Shown here one piece after another: positions 2,089 through 40,080 of a stretch of 64,000 nt of DNA; the stretch's first letter is position 1, and each line of letters opens with the position of its first letter. Made by a program: the position numbers and the translations under genes. This stretch comes from Savitreella phatthalungensis (lineage: Eukaryota), in contig AP039707.1 of NCBI GenBank assembly GCA_051599415.1, positions 1 through 64,000 of the forward strand. Direction: 5' to 3'. The notes beneath the pieces were generated by a model. The model saw only the letters and a list, made by a program, of their open reading frames with translations, made no database searches and was not told the DNA's origin.

Positions 2089-3231
2089 ATGCCATCGACA
2101 CCTGTTCCTGTTTCGCCGCTGATGCCTTCTGCATTCCTGCACTTGATCCTGATCCTGAAACTCATCTCCCTCACGTCACAATCGCGCTTGCTTGGGGACA
2201 CCAAACCTCCTTCGCCTTGGCCGCTGATTCTGATTCGCCTACACGTCTCTCTCACGCTCTTCATACTCACGCACATGTTCTTTCTGTGGGTCATGTTACT
2301 TTCTTCTTCACTCCATCATCTCGTCATTGGCTTGTTTGAACTCCTTACTACGCAACATTTCGCCAGTGCGCTTTCCATTATCCTCTCGCCGACCTTTGCG
2401 ACGAACTGGATTATCTTCGGGATATCTTCTGGGTCGGCCTTGATGACCCTCGCGCTGACAATATTCTTGATGACCTTCATGATGACCTCCGATGACACTG
2501 TCGCCGGCTTTCCCAACGGTCCCAATGAAACCCATAAACTTCCTCTTGCCGACCGTCTCCGCGATTTCTTGCACGAACCCCTCAACGACCTTCTTGACCT
2601 CCACAACGGTCCTCTGGGCGGCCCGCTGGACGACCTTCATGACCGCCATGACGTCTCTCCGGGCGGCCCGCTGGCTGATTCTCTCGACGATCCCATGGGC
2701 GGCCCGCTTAATGACCCTCTCGCCGACTTTCTCAACGATCTCCTGGACAAACCCCTCATTGACCTTCATGACCTTCTTCATAGTCGTCCGGGCGGTCTGC
2801 CTGATGATCCGCTTGCTGGCCCTTCCGACGATCCCCTTTGTGGTCTCCTCGACGGACCTCTTAACGATCTCCTGGCCGACCTTCTTGATGACCTTCTTGG
2901 TGACCTTCATGATGACCTTCTTGACATTCTTGACGGCATCGAGTGGCTGCTCTGTATTCGCGCATCCTGGCGCATGCAAAAGACACCTGTCACAAGCCGA
3001 TTCTTGACCATATCAGCACTTTCGGACGCCACTGCTTTCAATTGTGCACCTGTCACAAGCGGGTTCTTGACAATTGGCGCACTTTCAAAGTCCCCCTGTC
3101 ACAGACCAGTTCTTGACGTTTCCGGCACTTTCAGACAGTCGCTGCGACTGAAGACAACACCAATGAGACGCTCGACTAGACTGCGCTGCATGACTTGCAC
3201 AGGCTCTGTCACAATTGCGCCTTGTCAATGA
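2089..3231 (+). repeat. Low-complexity repeat ORF (LDDL/GGPL-rich); coding status uncertain
   Basis: ~12-bp degenerate units (GACCTTCTTGAT-like) at ~2440-2935 keep several frames open on both strands. No recognisable domain. Confidence 0.35.
2986..3132. repeat. Three copies of CCTGTCACA-N6-TTCTTGAC-N7-GCACTTTC
   Basis: Units start at 2986, 3049 and 3095. The blocks are invariant and the spacers have fixed length but variable sequence. Confidence 0.85.
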
Positions 3232-4642
3232 CGCTGACGACTTTGTGCTTCTCTTCTGCCTCTGAAGCTATTTTTGGCTCTTCATGTGATTATAGCTGAA
3301 CGCAAATAATTGAATGACTATATTTTGATGGAACTTGTGAATCACAAGTCTCTGGACGGTCGCGAGAAGCTCCATAAATACAGATAGACCAGAACAATAG
3401 GTTTGTGTGAAGAAAAAGCCCTCAATTAATTACGCGTCCTTGGCTGTCTGATGCATACATCTTACCTCTTGCTTTGCCTTGCCCTCCCTTTCATTTGTAT
3501 CCACATACCGGTATCCCCCATCATTCTAGGTCTATATAAGTCTTGTACACATATACACGTGATCTAGCACGTCAGAAGACAAGCATTCAATAGTTCTCAT
3601 AGGGACACATTTGAATTTTGGGAACAGCTGTTGGCGCTGGTATCTAACTCAATCACAGACAGGTGAAAGGTACAGTAGGTGACAGAGAATGAGACTGTGC
3701 TACAGAACTAGTCTGTATTGTCTGCTGATTCAGGTGGCTCTAAATTAGCTGCAAACGTGAGTGTCCGGCTACAAAAGAGATAATGGAGCTGATGTGGCTA
3801 GTGTGGCTGGTGTGAGTCCACGTGAACCAGAAACCTTGAACACGGGAAGGCCACAAGGCCCCGCTATTCAGTGAAATAATACACTCGAGCGACAATAAAT
3901 CAGCTGTTCCCATCTACCAATGAGATCAGCGTCTGCGCCAATCCGCCACTGAGCTCCTACAAATAAAATCAGGGTGGCTGTCATGTTCAGCGCTTATGGG
4001 AAATCTCCCTCGAACAACATTTGTGCACAAATCAAGAGAGTCTGGAGTCAGCTTTTTGGCAGTTTGTGTTACGTCAATCTAAGCCGTACTCTCCGCTCGA
4101 CATTGGTATGCGCTTGATGCAAGACTTGGCAGTGGAATTCAGACGGTCCAGTACAATCCAGTACGATCCAGCACTTGGCGGAGTGAAGCGGATGGTTGAG
4201 GAGTAATTTGAGACTCGACATGAGTACGCCGGTAACACAAGGTACCATCCGGTATTCAACGTAATAGTCGGACAATTTGAGTCCCACCTCTCCTGCTCCT
4301 CTTGTTCTCACATCAACGACATGTATGGCGTATTTTCAGCCGCGGCGCGCGCTACTGCGCCTTTCTGCTCAAACAATCCTGCCCTTGCTTGCTCAATTGG
4401 TTCCGCGTATGTCTGCTTCAGGAAACTTGCGTGCGTCTGCGCTATGGGCGTGTGCCCGATGTGTGGCTCCCACGGCTTACACCCGTTTGCTCAATAGACC
4501 ACTATGCTGCTCCCGCTCGAGGATTGATGGCTTACTTACAGTCACGCCTTGCTTGACCTCCTCAGCTTACGTCGCAAAGGGTCAAAGATCCCATATGTAG
4601 CGATCAAACAAATTCTATGTCTTCAGTGAGCGAGGGGCCTGG

Positions 4643-4662
4643 TTTGTTTACATGTAAACAAA
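4643..4662. promoter_or_regulatory. 20-bp perfect palindrome of two forkhead (GTAAACA) sites, copy 1
   Basis: TTTGTTTACATGTAAACAAA equals its own reverse complement; an identical copy lies at 7337-7356. Confidence 0.6.
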
Positions 4663-4857
4663 GCTCTGGACGGCCCTGTAGATCGCAAGGCAATTAATCG
4701 CGCAAAGCAATGATCTCTAAGGAAGATAAGAAGTCTTGTTCAGGGAATAGACTCGACCCCTTGACGAATCGCTTGTCAAGCGATCGCTCTATCGAATGAA
4801 TCAATATACCATAGTTTCGCCTGAATGAGACAGCGTATGCGACCACGAGAAGACGCA

Positions 4858-6640
4858 CTAGGACTTCGCCGACTCTCCAGTGCGGCTACTCAATTGTATG
4901 CAAACAAGGTGCGGTTCTCCTGGAGTGCGGTTCTCCTCGAGTGCGGTTCTCCTCAAGTGCTGAAGCGACATTGTATCTCTTGTTCTACGTACCTTTGGTT
5001 CCTTTGTACGACAATGTTTTGGTTGATTGCTAAAACATTTTTTCTTCTCATCTGCACGTAAACAATTCAGGGCTCCTCTGTAATGTTGCTCCGGTACCTG
5101 TCGCCTGCTAAGCGCCCAATGCCGCGTTTTGGTCTTGCACATCAAGCATGGTTGTACCAGTGTGCCTACTAGCAAGAGGAAGAGCGTCGCGCAAGCGTCG
5201 GGTTGTGTCATGACATATTGCTACAAATAGATCCCATCTGGTCTTTCAAGTCGCTAAAATTGACCTCTGACCCAGTTGTTGATGAACTGTTCACACTGCT
5301 TCATACTACCGGACCTCAACGGCAATTTGCAAGACTGGGCCGCTAGCAGTTGTCTGCGTAACTCCATGGAGCCATTGTCATTCTTGAACACCCACGCGCT
5401 TTTCATCTCCAGCATGTGATGGGTGATCTGGTTGACTTCCTGTCGACCTAAGCGTCCCAACTTGGCATGGTAGCGCATGATTGCCATGAGCATTGACCGC
5501 CGATAGTACTCGCGCTCCATGCGCGAGAGCTTCACCTGCTGAGCTCCGTACTCCTCCAGTCTCCAAGCGCTGTAGACAATCTGATGTGCAATGGGGAGTG
5601 TGACTGTTCGAGGCAGCTGCCACGTATGAGGCACTGACAACAATGGGAGGCACGCATGTCATGTCCTTCTGCTCCCAATCTCAGATCCCGAGACGCCTGT
5701 ACCCGTCAATCCTCTTGGTCTGTATCTGTTCAGGTCAAATTTGCACGAATATGCATTGCCACCGCCGCTCCACGGGGCGTACAACTTTGATGCTGCGCAG
5801 ACAATTGTCTCAGCAGCGTCGACAAATTCATATCTGTTCAGTGGTTGCGGCAACAATGGATCCTGCGCGCTCTGTCGACCGCACCTGTGCTTTGCACACA
5901 GTGCAACAAATACCACGTGCTTGTGTCTGCACGTCATGCAAGAACGCAGAATATGCTGCCAGAGCAAGTCGCCGTCCGCTTTGCGTACCGCCAAATCAGA
6001 GTGAGCAAGGAATCTGGCTGGGAAGGGACTGTGGCGGTGAAGCGACCAAGTAGCACCAGCATACGTCCTCAGAGTCTCGTTGAAGCAACTTGACCACCTA
6101 CATCGCTCATGAGAAGCAGTATGATTGATTCTCTTGCTACCCTCATCCGTCTCAGCGTAAGAGCAGGAAAAGTACACAGCAGCCAATCCACTGTCACCGT
6201 ACTGGCGATCATACACTCCCGCCGGGGACTGTGCGTGACAGAGTGCATTGCGCGGTGCCTCACTTGTCATGGCAAGAGCCTCATGATCATTCAGCAGCTC
6301 AGCAGCTTCAGTTGCCGACATTGTTCCCTGGGAGACCTCGTGCGCATTGAGTATAGCTTTCAGCATTGAAGTTGATCCAAAGGGTTGCAGCAAGGAGAAG
6401 GCGTCATGATATTGTCGATGCGCAGGATCAAGTTTTGCAACCTCACACACCTTCTTCCACAGGCGGCTGTCTTCTGCAACCTGCGCGGGTGCAGCAACTG
6501 CTGGATCCGGAGGCCTGCCAATGACAATCAGCGTCTCCACACATGTCGCAGTACCTTTCAGGAGGGAGGTTAAGCTTGCTGTCGGATTGGCACCACTGTC
6601 TTGGACGCACGTCGTACAGCTCTTTGATCGTGGTTGTCAT
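4858..6640 (-). pseudogene. Fragmented orphan coding region (consecutive minus-strand ORFs 6640-6443, 6540-5659, 5643-5254, 5211-4858)
   Basis: A chain of abutting or overlapping same-strand ORFs with protein-like composition. No family recognised. Confidence 0.3.
4909..4956. repeat. 16-bp tandem repeat x3 (GTGCGGTTCTCCTSRA)
   Basis: gtgcggttctcctgga / gtgcggttctcctcga / gtgcggttctcctcaa. Confidence 0.9.
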
Positions 6641-7059
6641 TCTGTGAACCTAGTCATGGAGACAAACACATGTTGCGAGTGCTCAATGATGCGGAATCGA
6701 GTTCCACTCAATCGAGGTTTGAATAATGTGATTATGTCTCATTCGATTGTGGTGACCCTACCTGAGGTCAAGCACAGACTGGGCAGGCAAGAGCTAGCAC
6801 AAGCCACCGCTACAAAGTCCTGGGAGATCCACCGAGCAAGACAGGCAAGATTGGCTGACGCTTGCAAACAGTTGCAGCAGGCAAGACCGGCTGTGCAACA
6901 GGCGCTTGATTGCGAACAGTGGCTCAAGGAAGAAGTCTTCGGAAAATTGAAATGCTAAGCTTACATGATCGACCCTTCTGACCGACTACCCATTCATAGG
7001 CCTTCATGCTGGCTTTAGATTTGATATATGCTTATCGATCATCCCCAAAGTGAGCGACT

Positions 7060-7217
7060 GCAGCGACCACTTTCCTTGCTGATCTCACTTTTGTTCTTCC
7101 AGTGCCAAGCTCGATGTATTCATTTTTTTGTGGTCTTGCCGATTTCAATACAGCTGCCTACCACATTGTCTCGCTTCACTCGATATCACCACCTCTCGTG
7201 TGATCTTGGTAAACTCA
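7060..7217. repeat. Dispersed direct repeat, paired with ~13820-13977
   Basis: Shared core TCGCTTCACTCGATATCACCACCTCTCGTGTGATCTTGGTA with diverged upstream similarity. Confidence 0.85.
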
Positions 7218-7336
7218 ATCCAGAGCTCGTCAGGAAGAAGGCCGACGGTCAAGTACGATATCGCGTGATCCAGAACTCGACTCGACATGAATGTAGCGGT
7301 CTAACAGTCTCTATGCGTCACTGAGCCCGTGCTTGG

Positions 7337-7356
7337 TTTGTTTACATGTAAACAAA
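7337..7356. promoter_or_regulatory. 20-bp perfect palindrome of two forkhead sites, copy 2
   Basis: Identical to 4643-4662 and about 500 bp upstream of the ATG at 7854. Confidence 0.6.
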
Positions 7357-7853
7357 TCTTCAGACGACCCCGCAAGACGCGGTAATGTAAAGCGAGTATG
7401 TGTGTGTATTAGGTTACGTAGACCTACAGTGCACACGTATGTATACAATCAAGCGAAAAAGTGATTAGTGATCAGTGGACAAGATCGTAGTTGTAAGAGG
7501 CAAGCAAGGCGACAATGATGATGGCGAGTGCAGGAAGAGCCAGAAGATTAGCGCTGCAGCAAGTAAATTGCCACGTAAGGCGATGAGCAGGCTAGCGAAT
7601 CAGGTGACGAGTAGGCCGATGGCAAACCTCGTATGTCTACATGCAAGTTACAGGCCAGGGGAGCGGCGCACTAGCGAGCCAAAATGGATGGAAGTCGCGA
7701 GCTCACAAGCGAGCGGTGCACGAGAGAGCCAAAACGACGCGGCTCACGCGTCCAGGAGCGAGAGGCATGGCATGTAAGCGAAATGAAGAATGTCGCATTT
7801 GGATGAACAATACGTTCTATAAAGGAACGATCTGTCCGCAGTAAGATAGTCAT

Positions 7854-8780
7854 ATGGACCAACAAATGAGCGACTTGCCCGCTACCAGTATGTCGGCCTC
7901 TTCAACTGGTGACGCGCAGGCGCTCTCACCAGCAGCACATGGACTGCTACACAGACGCTTGCCTACTCAACAAGAGCGCATTCGTCCGCGTGCTGGCGAC
8001 TTCTCTCTTGAGGCTGTGCCAGAGGATGCGACAGAGGAGGAGAGGAAGCGGCGCCTGGGAGCGTACCTTCGAGTGCTGCTTCTCCTCCATTTCGACTTGT
8101 CCAGGACCGTACCTGGCCACTCTGGTGATCAGCCGGTCACATACTTCAAACTGGCCATGAGCCAACTCTTTCCAGGCCTGGCAGAAGACTCGATGAGCTA
8201 CAGAAGCCTGATGCTGTACGGAACAAGTCAGGTCCGCGACTGGACTTTTGAGGTTGCCGAGTCGTACCGGCAATGGCTGGCTGACGCCGGTGAAGCCGTA
8301 AACGGTGAATGGATCGAGGCTCTCGAAGAAGAGGATGACAGCGACGATGAAAACGACGATGACGATGAAGATCTTCATCAAAGGAGCGCTCTGGACCGAG
8401 TGCTGATCCAGCGAGTGGACCAGGTCATCTTTGAGGACTTCTGGAAGTTCGCTGCGGCCTTAATCGACTTCGAAGCTTCGCTCGAGCGGCGCAATGTACG
8501 CCGCTTCTTCAAATATCATTGGATTTGTCTCGCTGGCGCTGTCTTCTTTGAGATCAAGGACCTTGTCGAGAGCGATACAAGAGACCATGAAGATTTGACG
8601 GAACAGTTCCGCAAGTTGGCGTACGACACAGGCGCTCCGAGGATCTCTATCGAGGACCTGGTGATGTACCCTGCCAAGCAGGCTGCGATCAACTCTTCTG
8701 TAGAGTTCGATCAAAGGTGCAAACGCATCGCGAGGAGGCTATTTGGCAGCCGTCGCAACCTACTTTCCCGCATTGACTAG
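7854..8780 (+). CDS. Orphan protein A (308 aa, helical, with an acidic tract)
   Basis: Intact ORF with TATAAA at 7818-7823. The duplicated fragments downstream keep recognisable peptide similarity (RRFF[KQ]YHWICLAGA.FF...EDLTEQFR.LA.DTGAP). Confidence 0.75.
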   Translation: MDQQMSDLPATSMSASSTGDAQALSPAAHGLLHRRLPTQQERIRPRAGDFSLEAVPEDATEEERKRRLGAYLRVLLLLHFDLSRTVPGHSGDQPVTYFKLAMSQLFPGLAEDSMSYRSLMLYGTSQVRDWTFEVAESYRQWLADAGEAVNGEWIEALEEEDDSDDENDDDDEDLHQRSALDRVLIQRVDQVIFEDFWKFAAALIDFEASLERRNVRRFFKYHWICLAGAVFFEIKDLVESDTRDHEDLTEQFRKLAYDTGAPRISIEDLVMYPAKQAAINSSVEFDQRCKRIARRLFGSRRNLLSRID

Positions 8781-8902
8781 CCACTGCAATCGATCTTATT
8801 TGCCTGACGTGCCCGTCTCCGCTGTGCGCGTCTCTGTCACCATTGTGACCTCTTTAGTCATATGATCGATCACAGATCCCCTCTACCTGATCACTTTCCC
8901 TT

Positions 8903-9885
8903 GCCAAGATGACGAGGCTCACGCGTCCGCGAGCCAGAGGCATGGCATGGCATGGCATGAAGCGAGATGAAGAACGTCGCATATGGCCGAACACATGTGC
9001 TATTAAGGAATGATCTGTCCGCAGTAAGATAGTCATATGGACCAACAAATGAGCGACTCGCCGCTACCAGTATGTCGGCCTCTTCAAGTGACGACGCGCA
9101 GGCACGCTTACCGGCAGCACATGGATTGCTGACCCTTTGATGGAGATCGTCGTCATCTTGACAATGTCGTCATGACAGTGATGACGAAGATCTTCATCAA
9201 AGGAGCGCCTGTGTCGTGAGCCAAGATGCGGAATTGCTCCGTCAAGTCTTCGCGGTCTGCTGTCTCGCGCTCGATAATGCCGTCGAGCCCAAAGAACGCG
9301 GCGCCAGCGAGACAAATCCAATGATATTGGAAGAAGCGGCGTACATTGAGCCGCTCGAGCGAAGCCAAGGCCTGAGTCAACTTAAATCGATTTCGAGGCT
9401 TCACTTGAGCGTCACAATGTGCGCACATTCTTTCAGTACCACTGGATCCGCCTTGCTGGCGCTGCTTTCTTTGGGATCGATGGCGTTATCGAGCGCGACA
9501 CAGCAGACCGCGAAGACTTGACGGAGCAATTCCGCATCTTGGCCCACGACACAGGCGCTCCTTTGATGAAGATCTTCGTCGTCATTGTCAAGACGACATT
9601 GTCAAGATGACGACGATCTCCATCAAAGGATTATCTCCATGAAGATTCGACTAGGCCTCGATTTAAGTTGACTCAGGCCTTGGCTTCACTCGGGCGTCAC
9701 CATGTGCGCAGATTCTTTCAGTACCACTGGATCCGCCTTGCTGGCGCTGCTTTCTTTGGGATCGATGGCCTTATCGAGAGCGATGCAAAAGACCGTGAAG
9801 ATTCGACAGAACAGTTCCGCAACCTATTTTCGCGCTTCGACTAGCCAGCCACTGCGATCGACGTGCCCGTCTCCACTGTGCATGC
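8903..9885 (+). ncRNA. Candidate long hairpin RNA locus 1: rearranged non-coding duplicate of orphan gene A
   Basis: 8903-9130 copies the gene A promoter and 5' end; 9012-9058 is identical to 7829-7875 and is followed by a 1-nt frameshift. Inverted arms at 9134-9366 and 9397-9629 with a 30-nt loop. Extra sense copy at ~9682-9824. The 3' end (9840-9885) resembles 8776-8830. Transcription not shown. Confidence 0.6.
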
Positions 9886-10277
9886 TTCCACCGTCTTTGT
9901 CGATGTGCTGGACGCTTTGTTATCCTTGTGCTTACATCACTCATCATACTTCTCGTCACTTTACTCGCCGTCTCACTCGTCACCTTCTAGCCATACCTTA
10001 TTCGCCATCTGAATCGTCTCATCATCTTGCTTGATACCTTGCTCTTCGCCATCTTAATTGTTGTATCCTACTGGTTACCTTGCTCGTCACCTTCCTCTTC
10101 AGCTTCTCCTCGTTACCTGATACGACACCTTCCTTGACATCTCACTGTTGATCCATTCACTGCGCTGCTTGTCGACTAGCTCGTCACGATTCTGACTGTT
10201 TTCGGACGATTGAACATGACTTGTACTGTATATTTGAAACGTATCGTCAGAACACGAATCGCAACAGACGCCACGTG

Positions 10278-11558
10278 ATGACCTCGCAGTTCCACGGCAC
10301 TGCGCAGTACGAGGAGCTCTGTGCGACGTTTGATCCACGTGAGACTGTCACAGAATATGCGCTCCGGCGCATGAAAGAATTAGGTCTCAATACAGAGCCC
10401 GTGGACCTGGACGATCTCGTGAGCCATGCTCAAGCGCAGCCATTGCTGATCAGACAGCGCAATGGACAAATTGTGCTTTCGGTCTGGATGCCGCGGCCTG
10501 AAGGGGAAGGGACCTGGATCAATCGAGTGAGGCGTGAGATTTCACGGGATACTCCTGAAGGTCGATTCTTCAAGTGGATGAAGAGTGATCTCTTCCACCA
10601 CGAGGCCTGGAAGAAGGTGCCACTCTCCGACAGCAGCTACGGCTTCTCAGAAGCCGCTGTTAAGGTCGCATGGTGTCTGCGTCAAATCCACAAGCACCAG
10701 ATCGAAGACCACAAGATGGAGATGAGGTACTTAAAGGTCTTGATCGAGCATGCTTTAGCAGGGAGTTGCGCTCGCTATGATTGCCCGCGGGACTGGTTGA
10801 ACCACGAGATCTACCTGCTGATTGGCTGGGCTCCAGAGCGCAGCGACGACCAGGACCCATCGCCACCGAAGGGATCTCGCTGGACGAGCAACGTATGCGG
10901 CCACAGCATTCGCCCTTACGTTGGACGCACGCAGAGCAATCCGAAGCGAGCGTACAAGCACTTTGGCAGTCGCTTCGCAAAGCAAGATATCGACCAGACT
11001 CTCGAGAAGATCCACCAGGCTGAAGAGGAGCTTTTCGGGGGCTCGAGATCTGGCAACGACGTCAAACACATCTCTCTCGTCATTCACTGGCGAACTGCTC
11101 CGGGCGACGTCAAAGATCTTGAGTCGAATATGATCACAGCTGCCAGGACGCATTTCCTGGAGCTAGGGTGCAATCACGGTGGCAACGAGACTTCGCACTG
11201 GATTTGCCTTCCTTCATTCAACGGCGAACAAAGCGGCAAGCAGCGCTGGAAGACAGCGCATCGCCAGGTCATGGATTGGCTGGACTCCTACCGACCTTCC
11301 CGATTGATGTTGGTGAAAGAGGGACCTCTAGCTGGCTTCATGGTGCCTTCTGCGAATCGCGCGCACGGTATGGGCACCAAGGTCGATCCTGGCTTTCGAA
11401 AAACCTTCCACAACATGGATCTTGCGGTTCGGAATGGCTGCAGGGCTTGTAGGCTCGACTACAACACGCTTGATGTGGCCACAGCCGAGCAGCTGCTACG
11501 CAACGTAGACCCAAGGGCGTCCAGAGGTCCTCATCGCAATCGTTACATGCGCATGTAG
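10278..11558 (+). CDS. Putative GIY-YIG endonuclease domain protein
   Basis: Ordered motifs EIY...PYVGRT..NPKRAYKH...DLESNMI...LGCN fit the GIY-YIG pattern (Y, YxG, R, H, E, N). The spacer between the two Tyr motifs is longer than usual. First ATG at 10278. Confidence 0.65.
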   Translation: MTSQFHGTAQYEELCATFDPRETVTEYALRRMKELGLNTEPVDLDDLVSHAQAQPLLIRQRNGQIVLSVWMPRPEGEGTWINRVRREISRDTPEGRFFKWMKSDLFHHEAWKKVPLSDSSYGFSEAAVKVAWCLRQIHKHQIEDHKMEMRYLKVLIEHALAGSCARYDCPRDWLNHEIYLLIGWAPERSDDQDPSPPKGSRWTSNVCGHSIRPYVGRTQSNPKRAYKHFGSRFAKQDIDQTLEKIHQAEEELFGGSRSGNDVKHISLVIHWRTAPGDVKDLESNMITAARTHFLELGCNHGGNETSHWICLPSFNGEQSGKQRWKTAHRQVMDWLDSYRPSRLMLVKEGPLAGFMVPSANRAHGMGTKVDPGFRKTFHNMDLAVRNGCRACRLDYNTLDVATAEQLLRNVDPRASRGPHRNRYMRM

Positions 11559-12052
11559 CACCCAGCTTTCCTCATTTAAACACGCATACATAGCTTTATG
11601 TGGCTGACGGTGTCATGTTCCTTCGACTGCATTACGACTTGCCACTAAGGAGATTCGACTAGCTGCATGGAGCTTCTTTAGGCCTCACAAGGTTCTCATG
11701 AAGCTTCCTTATCTCGTCCGCATGAAGCTCGCTCACCTGACTGGAGCTTACGCGACCGTGACGCTCACTCAACTGCTCAGAGCTTACTGGACAATATGGA
11801 TCTTCCTCTCACGTCGTGAAAGTTGAGCCCACTCGTCACAGAGCTTTCTCATCTGCATAGAGTGGTACAGCAGTGTAATGGAGTTCAATTGATGATGCAA
11901 TGCCACGCGAGCCAATCCACGTGTCTCTCTTCTAAGGTCCAACAAAGCTATAGCTTGACTTGCGCAGGCGATTGCTTGTTCGCTTGCTCCATTGAAATGC
12001 TACTGTCTCTCACTACTGTGATGGACGGACGCGTCAAAGGCGAGCTCTGATC

Positions 12053-12742
12053 ATGAATGAGCTCAACCGACGTGAGGTCAATGCTCGTGCTGCTTTTCGC
12101 TTTGTGCCAGCTGACCTCCCTGTTCGATCGGCGGATGGTGAGCGTCTGGTCGGGGAGCGTGCTGTGCATCCCTTCCCAGCCCCAGCTGCCCTCGGTAGCT
12201 ATCCGCGACGCCTAGCAGACGAAGAGGTTGATCTGCTTGAAGGCGATACCCCACTTGATGAGGAACTCATCGTCTTACTCTTGCAGGATCCCGACATTCT
12301 TGCAGTCTATCGCCTGCGCCCGCCAAGGTCTGTACTACTGGTGCACGTTTATCGACCGACCGATCTCGAGAAGATCGGCGTGCTCTACAATCTCAGGCGC
12401 AGTCTTGAGTACTGCGTCACCACGCCGCGCCGGACTTTGCTGCTTGAGCAGCGTGCACATGACGTTTATAGGAGCGCAGGCAATCTGAACGCGGCTCTTC
12501 AAAGGATGTTGGACTTCTGCCGTGTGCAGAACAGCCGCGCAGAGTACGTGATGCTGCGACCTGGTCAGGGCGATGATTGGTCGCCTAGAGGACGTACCAC
12601 TGCAGCCCTTGCTATCATCTTTGCGCAGCGCAACACGGCTACTCTCTGGATGCGCCGGCTTGCGCGAGCGCCTGACTCGCGTGAGTATACCGTCAGATTT
12701 GCTCCGCACCCTAGAGATGCTTCTTTCTACTACGTCCCCTAG
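12053..12742 (+). CDS. Orphan protein (229 aa)
   Basis: Intact ATG-to-stop ORF with globular composition and only a faint resemblance to Ulp1/C48-like motifs. Confidence 0.55.
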   Translation: MNELNRREVNARAAFRFVPADLPVRSADGERLVGERAVHPFPAPAALGSYPRRLADEEVDLLEGDTPLDEELIVLLLQDPDILAVYRLRPPRSVLLVHVYRPTDLEKIGVLYNLRRSLEYCVTTPRRTLLLEQRAHDVYRSAGNLNAALQRMLDFCRVQNSRAEYVMLRPGQGDDWSPRGRTTAALAIIFAQRNTATLWMRRLARAPDSREYTVRFAPHPRDASFYYVP

Positions 12743-12941
12743 CTAACGCTCTGATACTAGCAATCTATTGTATTGATACTGTTCATGCACCTGCCGTACC
12801 TTGACAATGACCTTCAGAATGCCCTATCACCATCTCGAGCCACGCTGTTGTAGACCTATGTGTGCTCTCGTATGCTCTGATGTGCTCTCGAGGCCTCATC
12901 CGGCATCTCTCGATATCCTCTAATGCTGCATCTCTAGGTTC

Positions 12942-13784
12942 ATGTCTCAGCGCAACGCCGGACGGGCGAATGTCATCATTGACAGTCGATCCGTCCGCGG
13001 TGCCCTTCCTGCGATGGTCCAGACGTACCTGAAAGCGACCTTGTGCATTGCCTGGCGCAACCAGGAGAATCAGAGCTCGGTCTCAGGCAGTGTCGCTCGC
13101 GAAGCTCTGCAAATTTTGGTCGGTCGCACATACGACCTACAGGACGAGAACGAACTCTATGCCTTCCAGGTGGACTTCGTGAACATTTTGCGCGGAGACA
13201 TCAACCCCGAGCGGACGCAGATGCGCAGAGGTCGCGCCGCGAGCTAGCCGACAAGACAGCGCAGCTGGAGGCGACGACAGCGCAGGTTCAGTGTCTGACA
13301 ACGCTGACCGAGAGACGTCAAGTCTAAGCAGACGCAGGCGCGCAGAGAAGCCGTCACGAGCGTGAGACCACGAAGACCCAGCTTGAGACCACAACAGCGC
13401 AGCTGCAGTCAACAACAGCGCGGCTTCGAGCTGCTCTGTCTTGTCGCCTAGCTCGTGGCGAGATTCGCATCTGCGTCCGCTTGGAGTTGACGTTGCTCGT
13501 CGAGCGCCGTTATTGACTGAACCTTTGCTGTCGTGGCCCCGAGCTGCGTTGTCTTGTCCTCCGGCCGATGATGATATTTCTCTGCGCGTCTGCGTCTGCT
13601 TGGACTTGACGTTCTTTGGCGAGTGTCGTCACAAAGTCCAGCTCGTGGCGAGACCTCTCCACATCTGCTTCTGCTTGGAGTCGACGTTCCCGAACAGAAT
13701 TGTCGCGAAGTCCACGAGAAATGCATAGGCTTCGTCCTCGTCTTGTAGATCGTATTTGCGACCGACCAAATTCTTCAGAGCTTC
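12942..13784 (+). ncRNA. Candidate hairpin locus 2: short ORF 12942-13247 followed by a mosaic inverted repeat
   Basis: 13101-13247 is the diverged reverse complement of ~13638-13784. Inner antisense modules at ~13428-13490, ~13513-13557 and ~13578-13612 pair with ~13200-13268, ~13250-13295 and ~13315-13348. Confidence 0.5.
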
Positions 13785-15559
13785 ATATGTCAGCGGCTAT
13801 GTGTGCCGCTGCTGCTTCACAGCGAGTTCTCTCTACGATTGCTGCTGCACTCTTTCGTCGGTGCTAAGCTCAATGTAGTCATCTTCTTCTGATCTTGCCG
13901 AATTCGAAACAGCTGTCTGCCGCATTGTTTCGCTTCACTCGATATCACCACCTCTCGTGTGATCTTGGTAGACTCGACGTGGATCTTCCCGGTACCGCCT
14001 GGCTTTCCTCACGGCCTCTCGTGGTTTTCTCTTGACTTCTCGCGGCTCCTCATTACTCCTCGTGACAAATTGACGGAAATCCACCTCCATATCGTGGTCT
14101 CGCTCAAAGCGCTGTCGATTCTTCTCTCGTGAACTCACTGAACTCGATATCAATCTTATTTTTTACCATCGTCATCGATTCTGGTGCGCTTGTTGTTGAT
14201 CCTGCGTCGTGCCCAGTGACCGTCCGAAGAAGGGCGTGTTGAGGGCACGATCTAACATCCTTGTGAGACCACTCGAATGCAGGTGATCATATTGCTATCA
14301 GCGACAACCGTTCAAGCGAGTGCTAATATACCTGATGACACTCTCCAGGCTTCCCTGAGCGTCACAACAGTAGCATGTTCGAGGTGCGATTGCCAGCGTA
14401 CGCTGCCTGCTGCCACTGACTGCATAAGCGTCGTGTCGCCTGCTGCTCGTCGTTTGATTGTGCTGTCGCTCGAATGCGCCAGCGGCTCCATGTCTGACTT
14501 GTGCAGCCCTTCTCCAGAGGTTGGCTAAAGGCGCAGATGCCTTGCAAGAGAGCTATTTGGCGGTAGTTCATCCTGCTCTTGTGCTTTGGTTGACTAGGCC
14601 TTGCAATCGCTCCTGGACGCGGATCAGCACATTTGGTCCACACGTTGGTTGTCACTTTACCCTTTGCCGTACACGTTGCTCACACGATCTTGCACACATT
14701 TTCACATGATGCCATGCTCATTTCTACTTGCTTCTTTCTCGACTTCATCCCCCAGATGGCTTTTCCTGCTTTATCACTGTCCTATTATTGTATTGAATGG
14801 TCTCGAAGACGATTGCACTGCAACAGTCATACGCATTGCAACTCAAAACAACATGTAAAAAGAGTTCAGCTCCAGAAGACGAACATTTCTTGTATCATTG
14901 AGCATGACGGCAGCGACGTCTCAATTTACTCATCGACAAACAGCGAGTGAAACGAGCCCAATTCGACTCGTCTAGGTCGATCGGATCTGTCCCGATTCGC
15001 ATCACAATTCTATCCATAGATCACACGCAGCATATGTGGCTAGGACTTGCTTCCAGATCGATGAACTTCTTCATGGGTAATCATGTTGATCGGACTATGG
15101 ATAGAGTCAAGATTTGAAAGTGTGAATTCAAACCACTGGATGATACTATGTCTCTGCTTTCTTTGCATGATTAAATTATGGACCGATCGACCCGGCACTA
15201 TGGTCTCTCGATAAAGGAATGCCGTGAGGGTGTATCTTAGATCAGGCTCCTTCAAATCGATGATCATCGATGCCCAGCTGAGCCATGAGCAGTCTTCTTT
15301 CTTTTGTAGAAATACACGGTGTGCAGGCCTGGGGCTCTGGACGAACCAGCGCAAGGCTCAATTTCACGGCGAGTGTATTGGCAAGGCACTAAGAGCGTGG
15401 TCCCTGTCCTGTCACGACGTCCGCACCTTCCAGTCCAGCTGTTCCTGATTCAGGTCGCGTCGCGCCATTGATACAGCGTCACGCACGCAATTCGACAAGC
15501 ATGCATTAATGTTACATTGGCGTCCCTTTGCGCCATGATCGACATTTCCGATCGCTTCG

Positions 15560-36550: not shown

Positions 36551-37414
36551 CTACCGCCATGCTGCCTGCCGTTTGCGTGCCGGTGCCGGCAGCAGGGTCC
36601 ATCCGATGTCCCGCTCTTTGAGCGAGACTCGTCCGAGCCCGAGCCCGAACCAGGACGAGCTTTTCGCGATCTGTGCCTCAAGGCTGCGCTTCGCCGAATC
36701 GTGGAATTCAAGCTCGTTTAACGTTATGCGTTGAGACTGCGAGCCAGCACTAGCACCTGGGAGTCTTGGCGGTAGTGGGGTGAGGGCGGTCGACCCGCGG
36801 AGCAAGAATGTGTTCAGCAACGGCACAATCCAGCTCGGATCGGCCCTTGGAGCGATTTCAAAGGACACCGAAGTTGTACGACCGGCGTGGACGTTGCCCA
36901 CTCGTATTGATACTGCCGCGTATGTAATTTTGTTGTCGTGGTCCAGATAACATTCCCACTGCAGGGTGGCTGTTGCCAGCTTGCTGACCGTTTGTGTAAG
37001 GTTTTTCGAGCGATCGTGCTCAAGCTCAGCCTTGATCGGCATGCTCGGGGAACCGTTGATGCCGGCTGTGGCTGACGTCGATTGAGTTGAATCGACTGTC
37101 ATCGACTGCTTTTGCCTCGAGCCAGGCGTGTTGGCCTGCTCGAGACCTTTGAGTATTTGATGATCGCCGTGGCGGCGTTTCCGTCCCATGAAGAGGTCGA
37201 TTCTTACGACCTCTTTCGTGCTGGGAGTCGCTGCCTGCGGCACTTCCACCAGCAGAGTTTTTGTCGTGGCGTCCCACGACAAAGTCGTCGCCGCATTGGC
37301 CCAAGCGCTCTTCGAGTTCATTGTGAGCACTGACGTCGCCAGATAAGCTGGACTGACTCGGTTCAGCACGTTTGCTGTGACGGGGAAAGCTTGGCCATGA
37401 CTCCTCTTGGTCAT
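36551..37414 (-). CDS. Orphan protein B (287 aa, predicted beta-rich)
   Basis: Intact ORF with TATATAAG at 37565-37558. A paralogous N-terminus is preserved at 39619-39454. Confidence 0.75.
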   Translation of the reverse strand: MTKRSHGQAFPVTANVLNRVSPAYLATSVLTMNSKSAWANAATTLSWDATTKTLLVEVPQAATPSTKEVVRIDLFMGRKRRHGDHQILKGLEQANTPGSRQKQSMTVDSTQSTSATAGINGSPSMPIKAELEHDRSKNLTQTVSKLATATLQWECYLDHDNKITYAAVSIRVGNVHAGRTTSVSFEIAPRADPSWIVPLLNTFLLRGSTALTPLPPRLPGASAGSQSQRITLNELEFHDSAKRSLEAQIAKSSSWFGLGLGRVSLKERDIGWTLLPAPARKRQAAWR

Positions 37415-39079: not shown

Positions 39080-39709
39080 CTCTCTCTCTCTTCCGACTCT
39101 GCTCACGCATCCTTATTCTCAAGGCATTCATTGAGCTCCACTTTCTTCATTCTCAGAAACATCATGACCACAAGAAGCCACGCCAAAGCGTTCCCTCCGG
39201 TGCCGAACGTGCTGACGAGGTCAGGACTGATGTTGATGTTGCTAAGTTCACACACACACATTCTCTCTCTATCTCTCTTCCGACTCTGCCACGCATCTTT
39301 ATTCAAGGCATTCATTGAGCTCGAACTTTCTTCATTCCGTTCTCAGGTCATCATGACCAAAAGGACTCACGACCAGACTTTCCTCCACACCAAACGTGCT
39401 GACGAAGGTCTATCCAGCCGACTTAGCTACGTCGGTCCTTACAATGTGCTCGACAAGCAGCGTGCCTGTCGTTGGATCCCAGTAGAGAGTGCTGGAATCG
39501 TGGTGGAACGCGCTCATCGAGCGCATTGTAAGTACTGTTGTCGCCAGATTGGCTGGACTGACCCTCGTCAGCACGTTTGGTGCGACGGAGAAAGCTTGGC
39601 AGTGAGTCCTTTTGGTCATGATGACCTGAGAACGGAATGAAGAAAATTCGAGCTCAACGATGCCTTGAATAAAGATGCGTGGCAGAGTCGGAAGAGAGAT
39701 AGAGAGAGA

Positions 39710-39781
<72 letters not shown>

Positions 39782-40080
39782 CTAGGATACGCTGACGTCT
39801 GGTCTTATGTAGACGTGTAGACGCCGTAATCGACACTTCTCGACTCCAACACGACCGTAGTCATGTGATCTGGTGACTGAGCCACTGTGCTCGTAAGTCA
39901 TGCTGCTGCGGCAGGTGATCAGTGCAAGTCGTGCAGGCATGATCAAATGGAGAACTGTGAAAGCACTGGCGGCATAATTGAAGCGACGGCTAATGTCCTC
40001 GAGCTGTAACAAGCCCAGGTCGTCTGACTTGGAATCAAGAGTTGATCCTGATTAATAGAGATCTGCAGTAGTGGCGGCAG
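39080..40080 (-). ncRNA. Candidate long hairpin RNA locus 3: truncated duplicate of orphan gene B with fold-back
   Basis: ~39620-40080 resembles the gene B upstream region (~37415-37900). Inverted arms at 39249-39453 and 39517-39722 with a 63-nt loop. A second antisense copy lies at ~39080-39222. Confidence 0.6.
39711..39780. repeat. (TG)35 microsatellite
   Basis: Pure dinucleotide run; the gene B leader has a shorter homologous tract at ~37508-37534. Confidence 0.95.

Follow-up and report, generated by a model that had tools for sequence, protein, structure and literature searches.

Is a long inverted repeat whose antisense arm closely matches the neighbouring gene a regulator of that gene, or is it the remains of a second copy of it? 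This question is raised by a hairpin locus at positions 8903-9881 of the first 64,000 nucleotides of contig AP039707.1 (assembly GCA_051599415.1, forward strand) from Savitreella phatthalungensis, hereafter the window, in which the locus follows an open reading frame (ORF) that we call gene A (7854-8780). An earlier note on this DNA had described the hairpin and had pointed out that the closer match of its antisense arm to gene A is what selection for target complementarity, or recent gene conversion, would give. The most likely account seems to us to be that of a rearranged dead paralogue of gene A, which was patched by gene conversion and which would have a latent or incidental hairpin-RNA potential. 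The parts of gene A with which the locus has to be compared are the following.

7854-8780, + strand: gene A, an orphan ORF of 308 codons, whose entry in the public collection has 296 amino acids and starts at residue 13.
7728-7853, + strand: upstream region of gene A (promoter-proximal part and leader), duplicated at 8903-9036 in gap-free blocks that are 87%, 74%, and 94% identical.
8355-8389, + strand: segment d, an acidic-stretch segment of gene A, present in four copies in the mini-hairpins of the locus and providing the second antisense match, with 9555-9589.
8475-8539, + strand: stretch of gene A nearly identical to the inner left arm (2/65 differences), read as the conversion donor and as the would-be target window of small interfering RNAs (siRNAs).

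A sensitive BLAST search of the gene A unit (7600-8900) against the 64-kb window returned seven other matches, all of them in 8903-9881, and tblastn agreed with this result. In the hairpin locus, the gene A unit is duplicated in tandem, at an offset of 1175 bp and with a rearranged interior, and the parts are the following.

8903-9036, + strand: copied upstream region heading the locus, with an expanded GCATG microsatellite (8940-8958, compared with 7766-7774 in gene A).
9037-9130, + strand: remnant of the start of the gene A coding sequence (its first ~95 nt), with a 1-nt deletion; the ATG at 9037 is followed by 31 codons up to a TGA.
9134-9366, + strand: left arm, made of mini-hairpin 1 (9134-9203) and the inverted copy of gene A 8475-8638 (9202-9365).
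9134-9157 and 9180-9203: arms of mini-hairpin 1, 24 nt each, 92%.
9367-9396, + strand: loop of 30 nt, the last 12 nt of which (9385-9396) continue the homology of the sense arm to gene A 8462-8473.
9397-9629, + strand: right arm, made of gene A 8475-8638 in sense orientation (77% identity) and mini-hairpin 2 (9559-9630).
9559-9583 and 9606-9630: arms of mini-hairpin 2, 25 nt each, 88%.
9658-9846, + strand: third copy, in sense, with a right-arm-like 5' part and gene-A-like from about 9769; the stop codon of the family lies at 9842-9844.
9818-9881, + strand: copy of gene A 8754-8827 (final codons with the stop, and 3' flank), with repeat matches of 87% and 95%.

At the head of the locus, 8903-9130 matches gene A 7728-7948, that is, the upstream region and the start of the coding sequence; the identity reaches 94% over 7814-7879, start codon included, and the TATAAA-like motif upstream of the gene A ATG reads directly as TATTAA in the copy. 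Behind it, BLAST places copies of segment d at 9179-9208 (sense) and 9589-9555 (inverted), an inverted copy of gene A 8475-8638 at 9365-9202, and sense copies of the latter at 9385-9561 and 9683-9822, and the resulting order along the palindrome is d inverted, d, inverted 8475-8638, loop, sense copy, d inverted, d, and third copy. Gene A 7949-8354, 8390-8461, and 8639-8753 are absent from the locus or rearranged in it, and about 620 bp of the coding sequence have no counterpart there. No ORF of the gene A type is left, the longest ones having 91 amino acids (- strand) and 110 amino acids (out of frame). Tandem homology that includes the non-coding flanks, together with the disabled reading frame, marks the locus as an unprocessed pseudogene. 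At the level of DNA, we hold it to be very probable that 8903-9881 is a dead tandem paralogue of gene A which was rearranged into a nested palindrome. A foldback transposon or miniature inverted-repeat transposable element was rejected, as the arms are coding-derived and, in the 64 kb searched, match nothing but gene A.

The earlier note had allowed that both arms might prove equally diverged from a true parental paralogue elsewhere in the genome. This idea receives no support, as protein searches with gene A found only gene A itself, among 4617 scored candidates from 5.8 billion proteins and, by HMMER, among 1.84 billion representatives, although such searches would miss unannotated pseudogenes elsewhere in the genome. 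Gene A had no Pfam match at E values up to 0.1, and up to 10 only Dsl1_N appeared, with 11.2 bits where the cut-off is 25. A weak lead to DUF3632 (PF12311) came from a language model (27/30 hits, score 0.92) but is unconfirmed by Pfam, in which the match is absent even at E<=10; its recognition value of 1422 is under the 2300 mark, and the titles and abstracts of the literature naming DUF3632 give no function for it. The single-sequence AlphaFold2 model of gene A is too poor for use (mean predicted local distance difference test score 42.5). Between gene A and the sense arm, 12 of the 17 differences over 8475-8539 fall on third codon positions (p 0.0019), and because of this excess we conclude that the gene A family evolved as coding sequence.

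The geometry described earlier was borne out by our counts. The main inverted repeat has arms of 233 nt each (9134-9366 and 9397-9629) that are 89% complementary and enclose a 30-nt loop, and the outer 140 bp of the stem, for which about five differences had been counted by hand, contain exactly 5 mismatches. A mini-hairpin of about 70 nt is indeed nested at the end of each arm, and the third copy does offer an alternative pairing partner, as the left arm and 24 nt of the loop pair with it over 164 nt at 80% (9227-9390 with 9658-9821); an inverted copy of these first 24 loop nucleotides precedes the third copy. The 26 mismatches among the 233 arm positions (17 transitions and 9 transversions) comprise 3/68 in the mini-hairpin part, 7/99 in 9202-9300, and 16/66 in 9301-9366. 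They display no one-directional C-to-T excess, and mutation of the kind left by repeat-induced point mutation was rejected on these grounds.

Folding of the RNA 9012-9885, which the earlier note had suggested, gave -518 kcal/mol, compared with -287.2 +/- 6.6 kcal/mol for 20 dinucleotide shuffles (z -34.8; 0/20 as good), and the fold is thus far beyond chance. The minimum-energy fold chooses the long stem over the mini-hairpins, each of which folds alone at about -37 kcal/mol, and the stem has a folding energy of -414 kcal/mol on the + strand and -402 kcal/mol on the - strand. Rfam gave only a tRNA elsewhere as a match in the window, and its best candidate in 8800-10000 was MIR6426, whose 21.6 bits (E 0.22) fall far short of the gathering score, 96.

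For the asymmetry between the arms, gene A 8475-8638 was aligned in register with its three 164-nt counterparts in the locus: the reverse-complemented left arm, the right arm, and the third copy. Differences are given for the first 65 nt and for the next 99 nt.

Left arm and gene A: 2 in the first 65 nt, 23 in the next 99 nt.
Left arm and right arm: 16 in the first 65 nt, 7 in the next 99 nt.
Right arm and gene A: 17 in the first 65 nt, 21 in the next 99 nt.
Right arm and third copy: 4 in the first 65 nt, 30 in the next 99 nt, the 30 including the non-homologous final 24 nt (13 in the first 75 of the 99 nt).

Fisher tests on the splits of left arm and gene A and of left and right arm gave p values of 2.7e-4 and 2.4e-3, respectively. 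The alignment of the arms to gene A confirmed the asymmetry that had been noticed before: over 8475-8539 the inner left arm has the expected two mismatches and the sense arm is much more diverged (17/65), and the perfect 28-nt run is found at gene A 8512-8539 (hairpin 9328-9301), next to a further run of 19 nt at 8492-8510, while the sense arm matches gene A perfectly over 16 nt at most. The alignment moreover revealed how the resemblance is distributed. Informative sites were defined as those where the right arm departs from gene A and the left arm agrees with either (n=30); among the first 16 of them the left arm has the gene A state at 15, and at every one of the last 14 it has that of the right arm (1111111101111111, then 14 zeros). 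This mosaic has 3 switches, and as few were obtained in 0 of 100,000 permutations. It delimits one further feature.

9301-9365, - strand: gene-A-like conversion tract in the left arm (2/65 differences, mosaic test).

The A-like block is bounded by gene A 8532-8539 on one side and on the other by the edge of homology at the loop, and because it is contiguous, with a single sharp breakpoint, we read the asymmetry as a conversion tract. Such patching is not peculiar to the antisense arm, because the sense third copy and the 5' flank carry A-like patches as well. The third copy is right-arm-like before about 9769 (4/86 differences) and A-like after it, with 23/86 differences from gene A in its 5' part and 6/54 in its 3' part (9 switches, p 0.017), and the blocks of the 5' flank are 87%, 74%, 94%, and 89% identical to gene A, compared with 77% for the sense arm. 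Taken as a whole, the locus is patched together from pieces that diverge from gene A by roughly 3%, 10%, and 25%. We favour the reading that the asymmetry of the left arm reflects a tract of gene conversion (or of recombinant origin), for which selection for complementarity would be neither needed nor excluded. Of the two causes named in the earlier note, recent gene conversion is thus favoured over selection for targeting.

Several points weigh against this reading. The reverse history, in which the arm was derived from gene A and its outer part was then homogenised to the partner arm, fits the counts equally well, and the direction of conversion from gene A into the hairpin assumes that the left arm was once wholly right-arm-like. 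The converted patch furthermore lies on the arm that would be antisense in a promoter-driven transcript and contains the longest perfect runs, which selection for targeting predicts just as well. In the outer stem, the transition mismatches comprise 5 G:U against 1 A:C on the + strand (p 0.11), a weak hint of RNA constraint. The order of the rearrangement steps is beyond recovery from one genome, and the subtelomeric position could mean that the locus is silent.

The junctions of the palindrome are informative about its origin. One of them carries a 7-nt microhomology.

9202-9208, + strand: junction at the 7-nt microhomology GGAGCGC, which joins the end of segment d (8383-8389) to the reverse complement of 8632-8638 and is mirrored at 9555-9561.

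In the third copy, a 144-bp in-frame deletion relative to gene A lies at the 5-nt microhomology CGCAA (9818-9822), and the turn-around spacers measure 22 and 30 nt. Short microhomologies and short turn-around spacers are the traces left by microhomology-mediated fold-back or template-switch events. The palindrome may have arisen by duplications of this kind inside an old, once protein-coding paralogue; later, non-reciprocal gene conversion from gene A would have overwritten several patches, of which the inner 65 nt of the left arm are probably the most recent. Rearrangements of the type of origin-dependent inverted-repeat amplification (ODIRA) or microhomology-mediated break-induced replication are similar in having three copies, one of them inverted, in their short-microhomology junctions, and in their short turn-around spacers, and the mirrored junction at 9202-9208 and 9555-9561 and the spacers of the locus are ODIRA-like. 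However, the ODIRA-like order is direct-inverted-direct with equal copies, whereas the order here is inverted-direct-direct with unequal ends, extra nested mini-palindromes are present, and the scale is hundreds of bases rather than kilobases.

Could RNA from such a locus act on gene A? The upstream region that the locus has in common with gene A makes + strand transcription probable; the product, a non-coding RNA of some 0.9 kb, would fold into the 233-bp stem and, if the fungus has Dicer and Argonaute, would be diced. Neither Dicer nor Argonaute domains were found among the 19 scanned ORFs of at least 250 amino acids in the window. On the + strand RNA, the left arm is antisense to gene A over 164 nt at 85%. 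Its 213 21-mers include 8 with perfect complementarity to the gene A mRNA and 38 with a single mismatch, which all come from 9299-9365 and have a target span of 8475-8541. The corresponding numbers for the right arm are 3/213 and 9/213, from 9554-9585 with the target 8359-8390, where the inverted-repeat match of segment d extends over 35 nt at 94%, and none of the 169 21-mers of the third copy has fewer than 5 mismatches. Predicted duplex energies of the left arm are -275 kcal/mol with gene A, -291.5 kcal/mol with its own partner arm, and -245 kcal/mol with the third copy. Small RNAs from 9299-9365 and 9554-9585 could in this way guide cleavage of the gene A mRNA at 8475-8541 and 8359-8390, respectively. 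A long inverted repeat within the putative transcript and extended complementarity to a protein-coding parent are features of the hairpin RNA (hpRNA) class, and a hairpin RNA that targets gene A is possible; that siRNAs from the locus measurably act on gene A, we consider rather unlikely. Any output through RNA interference (RNAi) we would take for a by-product of the rearrangement and not for a demonstrated, selected regulator. For the whole account, consisting of a rearranged dead paralogue, gene-conversion patches, and incidental RNAi output, if any, we see a somewhat better than even chance.

Among the alternatives, that of a selected hpRNA regulator survives best, albeit as an unlikely one. 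It holds that siRNAs from the hairpin keep down gene A, the promoter type of which the locus shares, and that gene conversion keeps the guide arm matched to its target. The retention of the upstream region and the 3' end despite the loss of coding capacity speaks for it, as does the fact that the best antisense matches (67 nt and 35 nt, with 2 mismatches each) lie on the strand driven by the retained upstream region; that the newest patch sits on the antisense arm, and that the window has a second, similarly built locus next to another orphan gene, also agree with it. Precedents exist in the target-derived hairpins of Drosophila (10.1101/2021.08.05.454923) and the palindromic siRNA loci of a yeast (PMC7528652). 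Yet the sense third copy and both flanks are A-like in patches too, the second locus has the sense arm closer to its parent gene, and the patch reduces the complementarity of the inner stem to 50/66. Moreover, there is no significant overall G:U bias, the whole stem having 10 G:U against 7 A:C mismatches, and no signal of RNA-level selection was detected in this comparison.

The second locus, at 39082-39860, contains three partial copies of the upstream region and the first ~110 coding nt of a Pfam-less gene on the - strand (36551-37414), the upstream region of which extends to about 37620. Two of these copies make up its hairpin, with arms of about 210 nt (39249-39458 and 39512-39722) that are 85% alike overall and include 63 nt of perfect complementarity, and with a 53-nt loop; the right end of the locus carries a long (TG)n run. 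The return of the same build shows truncated and inverted duplicates beside orphan genes to be a habit of this genome. Identity to the parent gene is 78% for the sense arm of this locus, where the promoter homology is kept, and 73% for its antisense arm, and this reversed asymmetry argues against a general rule by which antisense arms track their targets. A more far-reaching conjecture, which we regard as doubtful at best, is that the fungus keeps promoter-sharing pseudogene hairpins (at least two in the window, 8903-9881 for gene A and 39082-39860 for 36551-37414) beside young orphan genes as dedicated RNAi governors, with the guide arm refreshed time and again by conversion from the parent so that the suppressor would not fall behind its target. 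If this were true, it would be a fungal counterpart of the arms race between hpRNAs and their targets in Drosophila, with built-in updating. A third imperfect palindrome was seen at 13101-13784, with outer arms of 145 nt at 79%, nested inverted repeats, and 21-nt tandem units; it spans the short convergent ORFs 12942-13247 (+ strand) and 13448-13726 (- strand).

Stabilisation of the palindrome at the level of DNA, in which the central A-like patch would persist, independently of any RNA, by hindering cruciform or hairpin nucleation, is decidedly improbable in our view. A short spacer makes a long palindrome fragile, such sequences are revised at the centre, and the surviving copies would be those with an asymmetric centre; the divergence of the arms is in fact concentrated by the loop (16/66, compared with 10/167 further out), but a neutral conversion tract that ends at the edge of homology gives the same pattern. 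It is scarcely credible that the locus still encodes a short protein, from the 91-codon ORF on the - strand (9153-9428) or from an in-frame third copy: all three copies of 8475-8638 are open in the gene A frame over 48-63 codons, but these are fragments only, the ORF on the - strand has no gene-like flanks, and neither such a protein nor any other shorter relative of gene A was found among the 201 candidates scored in the collection (0/201). A fold-back chimera from long-read assembly, which the adapter-like bases 1-67 at the contig start might bring to mind (presumably an adapter), is very unlikely indeed, because the arms differ at 26 of 233 positions with a codon-position bias and a mosaic structure, whereas fold-back artefacts have nearly identical arms and are usually found at the ends of contigs, not 9 kb inside.

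We thus return to a dead paralogue patched by gene conversion, and to the setting in which it would have formed. The window starts at a chromosome end. Behind bases 1-67, which have an internal repeat and which we take to be an untrimmed long-read adapter or barcode, a CCCTAA telomere array begins at base 68 and degenerates to CCCTCA/CCCTGA units by about position 268. The telomere-adjacent 1.5 kb (300-1800) contain many short CT/TG-rich repeats, including 28-nt and 17-nt tandem units, and the strand skew over 1-2000 is strong (GC skew -0.37, AT skew -0.26). The hairpin locus lies about 9 kb from the telomere and is surrounded by ORFs without a Pfam family. No family was found by Pfam for 2089-3231, 5659-6366, 7854-8780, 10278-11558, and 12053-12742, the last four of which span 229-426 amino acids, and 2089-14000 has the appearance of a subtelomeric zone of orphan genes. 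A C/T-rich tract at 9949-10193, with a loose 12-nt periodicity and eight overlapping copies of a 29-nt repeat, separates the hairpin locus from the ORF 10278-11558 (426 amino acids, no Pfam family). From 16.4 kb on, conserved housekeeping genes are tightly packed. Ordinary eukaryotic or fungal Pfam domains were found in 14 of the 19 scanned ORFs of at least 250 amino acids, including SAGA-Tad1, NFACT, ATG7, a bifunctional His biosynthesis enzyme, and a hybrid histidine kinase, and these ORFs are mostly uninterrupted and closely packed; the DNA of the window is eukaryotic and fungal in character, from an intron-poor genome. A search with the SAGA-Tad1 protein led to clusters of Ascomycota and Basidiomycota only, and of five proteins of the window looked up in the collection, four form singleton clusters and the fifth is absent. 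One Pfam-less ORF of 775 amino acids is lineage-specific, with a single relative at 66% identity that carries PF04082.

By its structure, derivation, and complementarity, the locus would be placed with the target-derived hpRNA type, and several known systems invite comparison. If it is silent, it is simply a rearranged subtelomeric pseudogene. The locus also carries a caution, as the pattern of an antisense arm that tracks its target can come from ordinary gene conversion between tandem paralogues. In the inverted-duplication model, young MIRNA genes of plants originate from their target genes, and they are similar in that the homology of arm and target extends well beyond a single small RNA and in that the young locus lies near a gene family; the 233-bp stem of the fungal locus is siRNA-like rather than microRNA-like.

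Inverted gene duplication is likewise found in the endogenous siRNAs of mouse oocytes and in the soybean CHS1/CHS3 inverted repeat, which are given in the LIRBase paper as hairpins derived from genes or pseudogenes, the siRNAs of which hit the parent or its paralogues (PMC8728187); these cases, however, come from animals and plants and have small-RNA evidence, and in the main text of that paper the words 'fungi' and 'fungal' were not found. In a re-analysis of fungal hairpin small RNAs, the natural occurrence of long hairpin RNAs is stated to be still in need of exploration (PMC9757828), and no description of a fungal hairpin locus derived from a neighbouring parent gene was found in our searches of open-access text, supplements excluded. 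The endogenous palindromic loci of the budding yeast Naumovozyma castellii are likewise fungal inverted repeats, and there they are transcribed into hairpins and are the most prolific sources of siRNAs, with 74.1% of the siRNA reads (PMC7528652). The Drosophila hpRNA loci (Nmy/Tmy against Dox/MDox) share with the fungal locus an inverted repeat that stems from a copy of its own target, a non-coding RNA (putative in the fungus), a near-perfect long stem, and extended complementarity to the parent (10.1101/2021.08.05.454923). For the Drosophila loci, siRNAs, dependence on Dicer-2 and AGO2, and target repression were shown, whereas the siRNAs of the fungal locus are putative; besides, Nmy is described as an apparent retroposed copy, whereas the fungal locus stems from tandem duplication of DNA and has kept its promoter. 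If it is transcribed in an RNAi-competent fungus, it would be a target-derived hairpin suppressor at an early stage, in which one can still read the gene of origin, the copied promoter, the junctions of the rearrangement, and a recent patch of conversion.

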